This document shows positions 45,616-49,057 of a DNA stretch of 64,000 bases, piece after piece. The notes under the pieces are model-generated. The model was not told the DNA's origin and did no database searches. It saw only the letters and a program-made list of their open reading frames with translations. The DNA comes from an uncultured Nitrososphaerota archaeon (GTDB taxonomy: Archaea; Thermoproteota; Nitrososphaeria; Nitrososphaerales; Gagatemarchaeaceae): positions 704,001-768,000 of the forward strand of contig CAVRAG010000008.1 of the NCBI GenBank assembly GCA_963718895.1. The letters run 5' to 3'. Position 1 is the stretch's first letter. Each line of letters starts with the position of its first letter. A program made the position numbers and the translations under genes.

Positions 45616-46497
45616 TCAGACGATGAGAGGGAAGGTGAAGAGCCTCGAAAGCACTCGCCCGGTCCCTGTTGCTGCGAAGACTCCGATCTTGTACTTGCCC
45701 TTCTGGAGGTTTGCGAAGCAGAAGATCACCTCACCGGTCGAGTGCGGGGTGAGCCCAGCTCCGGAGGAGGTTATCCGAATCGGCTGGCCGTCGGCGTTGT
45801 AGATGATCGCATAAACGACGGGAAGGAAGGTGATCGCCGAGTTGTTCCTGAAGGGGATCGATATCCGCACCGGGCAATTCAAGCCCGCCGACGACCTCTG
45901 CGGCCTTCCTGCGGTCAGGGACTTGTAGGAAAAACCCAAGATTCCGAACGGGGCCGTCTTCTGGAGGGCGCGGTAGACATCCTTCCTGTTCAGCAGGTCT
46001 ATCTGGAAGCGGCCCCCTCCGACGTAGTCCGGCACGACAATGAGGGTGGTGGCCGAGCCTCTCGAGTCGGTGTCCAAAAGCCCGGCTGCGTATGGAATGT
46101 AACCCGGAGAGATCAGGGAAATCTGGTAGTTCTCATTGGGAAGGAGACCCTTCCCCTGTACCTTGACCTGGTCGCCGAGGTAGGCCGTAGGTGCCTCCGA
46201 CGAGACCGAGGCCTGGAGCTCGAATTGCGCGCTTCCCCGGGCAGCCTCCCGAGCAGCTGGCACTGCTTCGATCTGTATCTTGGTGCCGAGCTCACCCTTG
46301 AGCCCCGCCGTGGGGACTTCCGGGACAGTGATCACGGTGCGAGCGGGGACTCCGCCTGTTCTTGTCGCCGTGAAGGTTGCGACCTTCGACCCGCCGAAGA
46401 GAAGGTCGTAGTTCATACCTCTCGCAAGCCCCTTGCCTCGGACGACTACCATATCTCCGACATTGCCGGCCTTTGGCTTCACATCCAGGGTTGACAC
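45616..46497 (-). CDS. hypothetical protein with repeated Ig-like beta-sandwich modules
   Basis: Two VGD.V.V.GKGL repeats; probable GTG start at 46497. Confidence 0.65.
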   Translation of the reverse strand: MSTLDVKPKAGNVGDMVVVRGKGLARGMNYDLLFGGSKVATFTATRTGGVPARTVITVPEVPTAGLKGELGTKIQIEAVPAAREAARGSAQFELQASVSSEAPTAYLGDQVKVQGKGLLPNENYQISLISPGYIPYAAGLLDTDSRGSATTLIVVPDYVGGGRFQIDLLNRKDVYRALQKTAPFGILGFSYKSLTAGRPQRSSAGLNCPVRISIPFRNNSAITFLPVVYAIIYNADGQPIRITSSGAGLTPHSTGEVIFCFANLQKGKYKIGVFAATGTGRVLSRLFTFPLIV

Positions 46498-46617
46498 GGA
46501 ACGACCCCGGCCGAAGAAGAGAGGCTTATCAGCTTTCCTCAGAGAGTGTGGAATCCTGACCGAAGCTGGAGCTTTCTTGAGCGCGGGGCTGAAATGCTTC
46601 GAACTCGGGTCTGAGGC

Positions 46618-47013
46618 ATGGAGTCGGATCTTCACCGGTCGATGAAGAGAATCGTGCGCGGAGTGCTGGAACGAGAAGGTTTCACGGTCATCGAGGAACC
46701 CCTCTTCCCACCGACGCGTTGGATATCCTGGGAGGCATACAGACCGGACCTCCTCGGCTTCCGCTCCGACTCTCAGAGAGAGGAGCTGGCAGTCGTCGAG
46801 TGCGAGACACATCCGAGCATGCCGAGGTTCAGCGCGAAGAACTACGCGAGCCTCTGGTTCGAGCCGTCCGTCCTGAGCGAGGGATCGTTACGGCGGATCC
46901 TTGCCGTGCCCCGCGGCAGGCTTCATGCCGTGGACCTGGGATTGCGCCAACAATGGGAGATCTGGGTGCTCGGCTCCACCCAGCCTCTCGAGAGGATCTC
47001 ATCCATCGCCTAG
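46618..47013 (+). CDS. small PD-(D/E)xK-superfamily nuclease-like protein
   Basis: ES..H...K helix, G..V..E, RPDLLG...AVVECET core (ExE variant). Confidence 0.6.
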   Translation: MESDLHRSMKRIVRGVLEREGFTVIEEPLFPPTRWISWEAYRPDLLGFRSDSQREELAVVECETHPSMPRFSAKNYASLWFEPSVLSEGSLRRILAVPRGRLHAVDLGLRQQWEIWVLGSTQPLERISSIA

Positions 47014-47096
47014 GTCTGCTCGGGAGAAGCTCGCGCTGAAACGACTATGTTCTCCGTGTTTTAGTTAAACCATATGGGCGATGCATAAGAATCAAA

Positions 47097-47371
47097 GCCG
47101 CCGAGATTACCTTCGCAGTCAGGATCCGGAGGCTCAAAGACTCCCGGATGAGGGGAGAGAGGATGAAGGCCGAGGAGGGCGACCCGTCTGGAACTTGAGG
47201 TTCCACAGCGACTTGCTGGCTACCGGCCCCGTAAGGGTTGCCCAAGGGAGGCCCGACTCCCCCAGTTTCATCCCAGACAGCGCTCGAACATGTCCCCTAA
47301 TCTGGGTGGTAAGCTCTGGCTGTACGCCCGGGGGAGGCATCAAGCGAGGGAGGCTCTGTTCGAAATGCCCG
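47097..47371 (+). ncRNA. candidate structured ncRNA, family unrecognised
   Basis: Nested helices across the intergenic gap between convergent genes; TATA-like TTTTAGTTAAAC at 47059-47070 (see findings). Confidence 0.55.
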
Positions 47372-49057
47372 CTACGTACCTTGCTCTGTCCCGCTGGGTC
47401 CCGGCCAGTCACCCAACTGCTGAGCGCCGCAGTTGGGGCAGAACTTCACATCGTGGCCTATCTGGGTTCCGCACCTGCCGCACAGCCTCGGAGCCGACTG
47501 CATCGGTGAAGGTGCTTCGAGGACCGTGCCTCTGGCACCCCTTCTTCTCATTACCATCACAAGTGCTACGAGAATCACCGCCACTATGACGCCACCCGCA
47601 ATCAAGGATGTGGGGAGAGCTGATGAGGGACCGTTTGAACCGGACGAGGTGGACTGCGCGGTCGTTGAGACTTGAGAGGAAACCGAGACGGTGACAGTCG
47701 TCCCTGCGAGAGGGAGAGTGTAGGTCCCGGAGACCGATCCAAGGTAAGCATAGTCAGGCGCACCGACGGAGACCGTCGAGAAACCGTTCGCAGGTTGGGA
47801 GACCTGCAGGTTGTCTGCCGCTTCCCCGGTGTTCCCTCCGAAGCTGTAGTAGGATGGATAGGCAGTCTGGGCGTCCGAGGTCGAGTTTCCGTAGAAGAGG
47901 CCGAGAGCTGCGCTGAGCTGTGTAAACTGGGTGGATTCTCCGTTCCCCTCCCCGCCCAGGACCAGTTCGGATTCGTAGAACAGGCCATCGGGGACGGTGG
48001 CATTGCCCGAGACCTCGAAGTAGGAGCTCTGGACTGAAGGATCGTGTATCGTAGCGTTGTCGAACCAGTTGATCGCCTGCGCCTGTTCAGACCCGTTTCT
48101 CATCACCTGGGCGCCGAATTGCACCTGGACGCCCACTCCAGGGGTCGTGGTCTCGCTGATGACAAGCGCGAGCGCCAGTGGAAAGTGATAGGTAGAGTTC
48201 CCTGATTGGAACGAGTAGTAGTATCCGGGGTTCGCGGGGTATGCATACCCTCCGTCGGTCGAGGTGATCGTTGTGTTGTCGAGGTAGCCCGAGACGCTCC
48301 CGTTCCAGATGTTGTCAGCCCAGGAGACGACAGAGGCACTAGTCACAAAGTCAGGGGTATCCTGTGTCCAGTACGACTGCTGGTTCCCCCCCTGCTCGTT
48401 CACCACGAGGATGGAGTTCAGCTGTAGAGTGGCACCCGAGACCGTGTCGTTGTAGAAGGACGCCGACGCGTTGTAGGCCTGCATGGACGCGATGTCAGCG
48501 ATGCCTACAACGTCTGTGCTCTTGATGGTGTAGGATGTCACCTTCCCTGAGTCGTTGGTCAAACCGTAAGAGGCGACGCCCGTGGGTTCAGGCGGAGTAA
48601 TGGGATAGCTGTAGTACGGGCTGATCGGGAACGTCTGGATGTTGTAGCTCACGTTCGCGCTGTATCCATAGGCAAAGAACACGAGGTAGTAAAAACCCTC
48701 CGAGACCTTCAGGGAGTGCTGGGGGATTGAGCTGCTGTTTTGAAGGAAGAGTGAGGCCGAGATATCGCTCAGGCCGTTGTCGAAGGATGTGTACTGCGAA
48801 TTCGTCATGATCGCAGTGGAAAGCGTCGTGTTGCTGCTCATCGAGATGGAGATTGTCGTGGGGCTAGACGGAGCATCGATCTGTAGCGGCTGATAGTATC
48901 CCGAAAGGAGTACCATTTGATAGGGAAGGGGGCTAGCGGAGTGAATGGGTTGACCACTCACCAAGGGCGACGATGCCATTAGTAGTGCGATTAGTAGCAC
49001 GCCGGGGGCGGTGTAACGGTGCAAGTGCGGACCCACCGCTCTTGACCCTATATACAT
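47372..49057 (-). CDS. thermopsin (A5)-family protease with C-terminal TM and double zinc ribbon
   Basis: PTGVASYG, ATLQLN, YWTQD, DNIWN, ELVLGGEGNG, GNTGE..DNL; CGRCG..FCPNCG. Confidence 0.85.
   Translation of the reverse strand: MYIGSRAVGPHLHRYTAPGVLLIALLMASSPLVSGQPIHSASPLPYQMVLLSGYYQPLQIDAPSSPTTISISMSSNTTLSTAIMTNSQYTSFDNGLSDISASLFLQNSSSIPQHSLKVSEGFYYLVFFAYGYSANVSYNIQTFPISPYYSYPITPPEPTGVASYGLTNDSGKVTSYTIKSTDVVGIADIASMQAYNASASFYNDTVSGATLQLNSILVVNEQGGNQQSYWTQDTPDFVTSASVVSWADNIWNGSVSGYLDNTTITSTDGGYAYPANPGYYYSFQSGNSTYHFPLALALVISETTTPGVGVQVQFGAQVMRNGSEQAQAINWFDNATIHDPSVQSSYFEVSGNATVPDGLFYESELVLGGEGNGESTQFTQLSAALGLFYGNSTSDAQTAYPSYYSFGGNTGEAADNLQVSQPANGFSTVSVGAPDYAYLGSVSGTYTLPLAGTTVTVSVSSQVSTTAQSTSSGSNGPSSALPTSLIAGGVIVAVILVALVMVMRRRGARGTVLEAPSPMQSAPRLCGRCGTQIGHDVKFCPNCGAQQLGDWPGPSGTEQGT

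Follow-up and report, generated by a model that had tools for sequence, protein, structure and literature searches.

A structured RNA family with a kink-turn signature, found so far in one genus of peat-soil Nitrososphaerota

The window analyzed here is a 64,000-nt stretch of DNA from an uncultured Nitrososphaerota archaeon (GenBank assembly GCA_963718895.1, contig CAVRAG010000008.1, positions 704,001 to 768,000); coordinates are those of the window, except where the prefix C7 or C8 denotes a contig of the same genome. Within it, a gap separates two convergent genes, a 131-aa open reading frame (ORF; 46618-47013, +) without a Pfam family and a thermopsin-family peptidase gene (47372-49057, -; C-terminal zinc ribbon, whose Pfam score of 24.3 bits falls just short of the cut-off of 25). 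The original prediction, made from the sequence alone, placed in this gap an independently transcribed archaeal noncoding RNA of about 270 nt with a multi-branch architecture, and proposed that it be checked by an Rfam scan, by conservation and covariation in relatives, and by folding energy against shuffles. Our comparative results bear out a structured RNA on the + strand, without an Rfam family and with its own promoter-like box, and they replace the proposed length and fold: the conserved RNA ends at about 47266, measures about 180 nt, and has as its core an unbranched rod with a kink-turn that the prediction missed.

The limits of the element were set by a DNA search of 60 related genomes, which returned strong matches (E 1e-17 to 2e-72; 71-87% identity) in eight genomes of the same genus. 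These matches span only positions ~5-230 of the query, corresponding to ~47044-47270 of the window, and both flanks are unalignable; in a ninth genome, the match was limited to the promoter part, at a contig end. Conservation in the alignment begins at GTGTTTTAGGTAAACCATATGG and stops abruptly after GACTCCCCCAG (47265). The conserved unit runs from a TATA-like box (47059-47069) through 47265, and within it the RNA would occupy ~47089-47266 (+), with a lineage-specific 5' leader that carries a hairpin, followed by a core of ~114 nt. No Rfam 15 family matched at its gathering score anywhere in the 64-kb window, a permissive scan of 46900-47500 (601 bases) gave only noise (E of at least 0.74), and a scan of 15 family loci returned five tRNA genes and nothing else.

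A covariance model built from nine orthologues (R1) recovered the orthologous copies and, in the same genomes, nine others that are far more divergent (48-71 bits), one of them a second copy in the window's own genome (C8:85000-85187, - strand, or C8:85003-85136 when delimited more narrowly). Only the core, from GGGGA through CCCCCAG, is common to the paralogs. With a model of the core (R2), 18 copies scored 83-121 bits; they are distributed over 10 of the genus's 23 genomes, at one to three copies per carrier genome, and the next best match scored 21 bits. Beyond the genus, where ~370 genomes were sampled in all (the class and phylum samples partly overlap), R2 found nothing credible in 74 other genomes of the family (one match, 19.7 bits), 150 sampled genomes of the class (one match, 23.3 bits), or 150 sampled genomes of the phylum (one match, 21.9 bits), and these 19-23-bit matches lack the kink-turn UGA and resemble noise. 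When one genome for each prokaryote species was scanned with a sequence pattern, 20 loci came up, namely, 15 of the same copies, in metagenome-assembled genomes labeled Nitrososphaerota, Nitrososphaerales, or Thaumarchaeota, including Candidatus Gagatemarchaeum stordalenia, and five chance matches. A scan of the same kind gave 35 loci in metagenome contigs (31 at 69-120 bits, one at 22 bits, and three with no match to the model) and none in viral contigs. Genome and metagenome copies combined comprise 43 distinct sequences. The family is so far seen only in one group of peat-soil archaea, a single Nitrososphaerota genus, and this narrow distribution limits its general reach.

Across the 43 copies, the core is a rod of 92-127 nt built from a G/C-rich P1 with an A-rich bulge, the kink-turn, and then helices P2 to P4, with a purine-rich loop between P2 and P3, another small loop between P3 and P4, and at the tip a variable apex, in which the difference in length lies. 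The parts of the window's copy are listed below, 5' to 3' by their first strand.

47152-47161 (+): 5' strand of P1, made of GGGG (P1a, 47152-55), a bulge AGA (47156-58), and GAG (P1b, 47159-61); pairs with 47257-63
47152-55 with 47260-63 (+): P1a, GGGG with CCCC
47159-61 with 47257-59 (+): P1b, GAG with CTC
47162-47167 (+): bulged strand of the kink-turn, with L1-L3 GAT (47162-64), G47165 and A47166 (sheared), and A47167 (position 3b)
47165-47166 with 47255-47256 (+): sheared pairs of the kink-turn, G47165.A47256 and A47166.G47255; the 3b.3n pair is A47167.C47254
47168-71 with 47250-53 (+): P2, GGCC with GGCC
47172-76 (+): 5' side of the purine-rich internal loop J2/3, GAGGA (GARGA in the family), opposite 47244-49
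47177-84 with 47236-43 (+): P3, GGGCGACC with GGTTGCCC
47188-91 with 47223-26 (+): P4, CTGG with CCGG (YCRG in the family)
47192-47222 (+): apical domain, which differs among paralogs in both length and sequence
47244-49 (+): 3' side of the same loop (J3/2), AAGGGA (ANGGAW in the family)
47254-47256 (+): non-bulged strand of the kink-turn, with C47254 (position 3n), G47255, and A47256
47257-47265 (+): 3' strand of P1, CTCCCCC, then an invariant AG; a sharp 3' limit of conservation in every copy

The fold is supported by covariation, which, together with the conservation in relatives, is the check that the prediction passed clearly. Among the 18 model-found copies, 95.4% of cells are paired, nine of 23 pairs show compensatory changes, and none of 500 shuffles did as well; when partners were slid by 1-3 columns as a control, pairing in these 18 copies fell to 32-56%. 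The larger set gives similar values (95.7% of cells paired; compensatory changes in 10 of 23 pairs) in an alignment that was itself fitted to the model and includes one false member, L130. Specifically, compensatory changes occur in three of the four P2 pairs (GGTC/GACC, GGGC/GCCC, and GGCT/AGCC) and in seven of the eight pairs of P3, a helix that the original prediction had correctly proposed. In P4, 97.6% of cells are paired, with one-sided changes only, and its register may be either CUGG/YCRG or UGG/CCR. Cells of the G.U type number 74, against 12 of the A.C type; this excess indicates that the + strand is the functional one, as had been predicted, and that selection acts at the level of RNA. 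An alternative partner for the 5' strand of P3, given by RNAalifold on a MAFFT alignment of the group-A loci (those of the window's locus type), received no support from the paralogs and was rejected.

The basal part of the rod is nearly invariant. All seven P1 pairs are the same in 43/43 copies, position L3 of the kink-turn is U in 43/43, and GA stands on both kink-turn strands in 42/43, an invariance that for the 31 metagenome copies follows in part from the search itself, since the pattern used to fish them fixes the P1 and kink-turn bases; only the 18 covariance-model copies are free of this bias, and all 18 conform. P1 is uninformative for covariation because it is invariant, with changes confined to its bulge (AAA in 22 copies, AGA in 20, and ACA in one). 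The 3b.3n position is freer (A.C in 20 copies, G-C in 11, A-U in five, G.U in four, A.G in two, and A.A in one), such that a pair or wobble-like combination is found in 40 of 43. A kink-turn is defined as a bulge of three nucleotides, after which come tandem sheared G.A and A.G pairs, set between a canonical and a non-canonical stem (PMC5061560), and at the level of sequence, the core conforms to this definition. By inspection, the J2/3 loop is also kink-turn-like in the majority of copies, and is not so in ~12 of 43. L7Ae-family proteins recognize such motifs and then bring in further proteins (PMC11213020). The genome encodes an L7Ae gene (C7:426990-427259) and an L30e-like paralog.

Upstream of the core, the group-A loci share a second set of conserved features.

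47059-47069 (+): TATA-like box, TTTTAGTTAAA, at the same distance in 19/19 group-A loci with enough flank
47070-77: CCATATGG-type palindrome between the box and the probable start, as conserved as the box in group-A loci
47084-47091 (+): CATAAGAA block, invariant or nearly so in 20 group-A sequences
47092-47123 (+): 5' leader, a variable segment of ~22 nt followed by conserved CGCAGTCAGG, from alignments of group A
47124-47149 (+): 5' hairpin, ATCCGGAG / CTCC-C-GGAT, with an A-rich loop

The box at 47059-69, which the original prediction had already singled out, is a probable promoter, to judge from its sequence and fixed position, and it resembles the AT-rich boxes (TTTTAG, TTTAAA, and TTAATA types) that lie ~30-36 nt upstream of the genome's tRNA genes. 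With the established spacing of archaeal promoters, transcription would start near 47089, ~26 nt from the center of the box, and the palindrome may be a transcription factor site. The leader is specific to group A, and those of the paralogs are unrelated to it. In most of the 20 group-A sequences, the stem (CC)GGRG...CUCC(GG) is kept by inspection; the prediction's ATCCGG/CCGGAT hairpin thus survives in this form, while its ATCCGG arm is absent from one variant. At the other end, the shared conservation boundary suggests a 3' terminus at ~47266. A short T run follows CCCCCAG in the window (47266-68) with no strong terminator evident, and a T at the position after CCCCCAG occurs in 11 of 43 copies, all of group A. 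As a separate observation, the 3' arm of the group-A hairpin, CUCCC (47141-45), can pair with the P1 segment GGGGA (47152-56), and the minimum-energy fold of the full length (47089-47266) prefers this pairing over P1, whereas that of the core (47150-47265) recovers P1, P2, and P3. The CUCCC/GGGGA pairing could be a switch or alternative conformer, or a coincidence of G/C-rich arms.

The paralogs differ in their settings. Group-C copies are divergent from a tRNA-Leu(TAG) gene in 4/4 loci (L097, L104, L109, and L132), across a spacer of ~140 nt with a shared palindromic AT-rich box (TATAACAnnGTTAT..ATAT) that looks like a bidirectional promoter, an arrangement that points to a promoter of the stable-RNA type. 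Several paralogs (L117, L132, L133, L114, and L060) have redox-related neighbors, namely, genes for DsbA-like, thioredoxin, VKOR, and OsmC proteins, a zinc alcohol dehydrogenase, and a GMC-type oxidoreductase. Given an AUGA...GA motif and the thioredoxin, OsmC, DsbA, and VKOR neighbors, a selenocysteine insertion sequence (SECIS) element was considered and rejected, because the RNA and the thioredoxin gene have a tRNA gene between them and no selenocysteine machinery was found in the genome, which is 80.5% complete (no tRNA-Sec by ARAGORN, no SepSecS, and selD at 48 bits against a cut-off of 125).

Taken together, these observations lead us, with moderate confidence, to the reading that the locus encodes a small RNA with an L7Ae-type kink-turn that works as part of a ribonucleoprotein and, in the window, has its own promoter. 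Under this reading, ~47089-47266 (+) would give rise to a stable noncoding RNA of ~180 nt from a TATA-box promoter, and the RNA would belong to a lineage-restricted family whose function resides in the ~92-127-nt core. The kink-turn would, in an archaeon, most likely be bound by L7Ae, and the RNA would therefore probably act as a ribonucleoprotein. L7Ae would fix a sharp bend at the basal kink-turn, and the invariant loops between P2 and P4 would serve as the surface on which another partner, be it a protein or a small ligand, is engaged. A fuller version of this proposal is possible, and we put it forward only tentatively. In it, the RNA is a subunit of a new L7Ae-dependent archaeal ribonucleoprotein, distinct from C/D and H/ACA guides as well as from RNase P RNA and signal recognition particle (SRP) RNA, and its invariant purine-rich loops above the kink-turn bind a lineage-specific protein or a metabolite. 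It would be made both from stand-alone genes and from mRNA 3' regions, having arisen and multiplied in one non-ammonia-oxidizing soil Nitrososphaerota genus.

Several results weigh against the ribonucleoprotein reading. First, the folding energy gives it little help: z-scores against shuffles are -0.18 (+ strand) and +0.53 (- strand) for 47095-47371, the interval of the prediction's own energy check, -0.16 for the refined RNA (47089-47266), and -1.63 for the core (47150-47265), where 13 of 200 shuffles were as good and the core is thus weakly better. The case rests on comparative evidence because folding energy is no better than that of shuffles, and to that evidence apply the pattern-fixed bases and the model-fitted alignment described above. 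Second, one copy has UA rather than GA on the non-bulged strand of the kink-turn. Third, no extra L7Ae paralog tracks the RNA, as two family members are present in RNA-bearing and RNA-less genomes alike, and no co-occurring protein partner was found. Finally, the group-B copies, which follow a co-oriented gene of GMC-oxidoreductase-like type (weak Pfam matches) at a distance of ~90 nt, have no evident promoter; therefore, not every copy is a stand-alone gene, and some are probably made from mRNAs.

This last point feeds the strongest of the alternatives, which we nonetheless consider unlikely: that the core is a cis-acting element of mRNAs, in a 3' untranslated or intergenic region, that with or without L7Ae would shield the upstream mRNA against 3' exonucleases, flag where processing takes place, or adjust the expression of a neighboring gene, the stand-alone copies being secondary. 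Beyond the spacing of group B, whose copy in two loci precedes the gene for a Gluconate_2-dh3 small subunit of the same enzyme type, this idea accommodates the many copies that lie 3' of a co-oriented gene or between convergent genes, as well as the window's copy, which comes after the conserved 131-aa gene. It sits poorly with group A, where the conserved promoter-like box stands between the upstream gene and the RNA, and with group C, where the oppositely oriented tRNA gene separates the RNA from the upstream gene. Neighboring gene families also differ between locus types, and the 131-aa gene is present without the RNA in 11 genomes. Of the genus's 23 genomes, 21 carry this gene, which falls into two identity classes, and the RNA is confined to the class of at least 63% identity; at the syntenic loci of eight RNA-less genomes, the best covariance-model score was 14.7 bits with filters off. 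In one genome (G003), a convergent PGK gene follows the 131-aa gene, and with this differing synteny there is no alignable empty site.

Two side observations concern the 131-aa gene and its surroundings. At 45616-47013, three long ORFs overlap, none with a Pfam family (45616-46812, -, 398 aa; 45742-46494, +, 250 aa; and 46618-47013, +, 131 aa), and conservation has been shown only for the 131-aa one. At the group-A locus on G007:C1 (L047/L085), an in-frame TAA lies within the sequence that matches the 131-aa gene, and the RNA is followed by a co-oriented gene for a pyruvoyl-dependent arginine decarboxylase in place of the convergent thermopsin gene.

An improbable second alternative is a ligand-sensing aptamer akin to an orphan riboswitch, in which the internal loops form the pocket and pairing of the P1 5' strand with the upstream CUCCC acts as the switch. 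Highly conserved loops between covarying helices, together with a variable apex, would suit such a role, as would the full-length minimum-energy fold, in which P1 is replaced, and some paralogs do precede a co-oriented gene (peptidase M24, Gluconate_2-dh3, or a Kelch protein). The families of the downstream genes share no common theme, however, and no Rfam riboswitch matched. In the window and in group C, the RNA faces a convergent gene, which leaves it nothing downstream to control, and the genes downstream of the other copies are unrelated to one another, unlike the recurring families expected after the 5' untranslated regions in which riboswitches lie.

We regard as still less probable that the RNA is a guide, either an aberrant box C/D methylation guide or the scaffold of an RNA-guided nuclease or recombinase with its guide in the 5' leader or the 3' tail. 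Two features would suit a guide, namely, a box C/D-like kink-turn that a terminal stem closes, and a conserved scaffold whose flanks are copy-specific and whose 3' boundary is sharp. However, the sequence upstream of the D-like box is conserved and forms part of P2 and P3, which leaves no free variable guide, and in a scan confined to the rRNA operon, the best complementarity is 12 nt, equaled by 8 of 200 shuffles (blastn-short E of at least 0.06 against the whole operon), in a segment that varies among orthologues and lies away from the D-like box. No TnpB, IscB, Cas, or IS110 gene occurs at any of the 22 non-A loci within a distance of 1.5 kb, and viral contigs contained no match. In a Pfam scan of 58 flanking ORFs of the non-A loci and of the window's neighbors, the sole mobile-element gene was one rve integrase, ~500 nt away at one locus.

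That the family is what remains of a small mobile or repeated DNA element, of the miniature inverted-repeat transposable element type and without a function at the RNA level, appears very unlikely. Multiple copies, sharp boundaries, inverted-repeat-like ends (GGGG...CCCC), and a narrow, recent-looking distribution over several unrelated loci speak for it, but such a relic would not account for helices kept by compensatory changes, or for the strand-specific excess of G.U over A.C cells. Moreover, copies are syntenic across species even though the adjacent intergenic DNA has diverged beyond alignment, and no target-site duplications or transposase genes were seen at the copies.

The fold of the original prediction, a multi-branch RNA of ~270 nt (47100-47371) closed by 47100-111/47308-320 and containing pseudoknots, has little left to commend it, and we hold it to be highly improbable. 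All of the words it quoted are present where it had placed them, and they are complementary. However, the 3' partners of its outer helices and pseudoknots fall at 47266-47363, past the end of conservation and in sequence where homologous loci are unalignable, which leaves those elements without support: this applies to the terminal stem, to AGGGGA/TCCCCT (47293), to GGATGAAG/TTTCATCC (47266), and to the TCGAACA/TGTTCGA pseudoknot. Of its inner elements, GGGAG (47246)/CTCCC (47257) is superseded by the family-invariant long-range pairing GGGGAG (47152)/CUCCCC (47257-63), and the hairpins TGGAAC/GTTCCA and CAGCG/TGCTG are lost in the A2/A3 variants. Duplexes between the 5' variable segment and the 110 nt downstream were no better than shuffles in the 19 group-A loci (z -2.3 to +1.2; -0.76 for the window), in line with the interval's energy z-score. 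Lastly, a small protein-coding gene can practically be dismissed: ORFs do exist in the window (for example, one of 66 aa at 47045-47245, -, and one of 142 aa on the + strand), but neither has a Pfam match, at most 19 of 43 copies keep any given frame open, all three classes modulo 3 are represented among the core lengths, and close orthologues differ by 1-nt indels.

To return to the RNA as a probable ribonucleoprotein subunit, how it relates to known archaeal and bacterial RNAs can be considered class by class. To our knowledge, the archaeal repertoire of structured noncoding RNAs extends little beyond the universal RNAs and the modification guides. In the open-access literature on Nitrososphaera, kink-turns, or Gagatemarchaeaceae, we found no description of such an RNA, and no structured noncoding RNA reported for uncultured soil archaea of the Group I.1c or Gagatemarchaeaceae type.

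Archaeal SRP RNA and RNase P RNA, the latter of which also binds L7Ae, are likewise sizeable structured RNAs. Both were rejected as identities, as the prediction had argued: the candidate matched neither model, and it cannot be either RNA because both genes lie elsewhere in the genome, on the same contig as the window (SRP RNA, RF01857, C8:1105062-1105375, 99.7 bits; RNase P RNA, RF00373, C8:1259792-1260078, 185.3 bits). Outside the window, the contig also bears a large-subunit rRNA match (C8:1568000-1572001) of 4002 nt to a model of 2987 positions, such that the 23S gene is ~1 kb longer, possibly through an intron or insertion.

Archaeal H/ACA small RNAs share with the new RNA a hairpin with internal loops and an L7Ae-type kink-turn, and AGA stands just past the basal stem in many copies. 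They differ in that the kink-turn of the new RNA is basal, below the internal loops, whereas that of H/ACA RNAs lies in the upper stem, and in that its internal loops are conserved among paralogs, whereas H/ACA loops are guide-like and variable. An H/ACA-like lower stem formed from the flanks is generally absent (mean z -0.19; below -2 in 3 of 43 copies), and there is no ACA box at a fixed distance.

The closest likeness is to the terminal kink-turn of archaeal box C/D small RNAs (and to its eukaryotic relatives, the kink-turns of the U3 B/C motif and the U4 5' stem-loop), with its short terminal stem, three-nucleotide bulge ending in U, tandem G.A/A.G pairs, and G-C in the non-canonical stem. 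The strands NRUGA-R-GG (5') and CC-Y-GA (3') resemble boxes C and D, whose consensus sequences are RUGAUGA and CUGA, and the binder to be expected is again an L7Ae-family protein. In the D-like box CYGA, Y is C in 31 of 43 copies. In the C-like box, a purine, not U, follows UGA. The aligned cores contain no internal C'/D' motif, that is, no second pair of the UGAUGA/CUGA type, and the new RNA has neither a free guide of 10-12 nt upstream of its D-like box nor above-chance rRNA complementarity. Size separates the two as well: archaeal C/D small RNAs measure roughly 50-70 nt, against 92-127 nt for the core alone and a probable ~180 nt for the transcript.

Among orphan structured RNAs with a kink-turn recognized by protein, bacterial OLE RNA offers a parallel in general character, as it is stand-alone, lineage-restricted, and highly structured, is without an assigned biochemical function, and needs a kink-turn for its protein partner (PMC9723947). 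OLE RNA is ~600 nt long, bacterial, and unrelated in sequence, whereas the new RNA is ~180 nt long, archaeal, and multi-copy. The family described here thus falls outside every known class of kink-turn RNA for which membership could be tested, and is a new RNA family built on a known motif. With a covariation-backed fold, a recognizable protein-binding motif, and a clear set of copies, it is directly testable, and as a young, multi-copy family, it may show how a new structured RNA originates and comes to occupy further loci, where some copies have promoters of their own and others lie within mRNAs.

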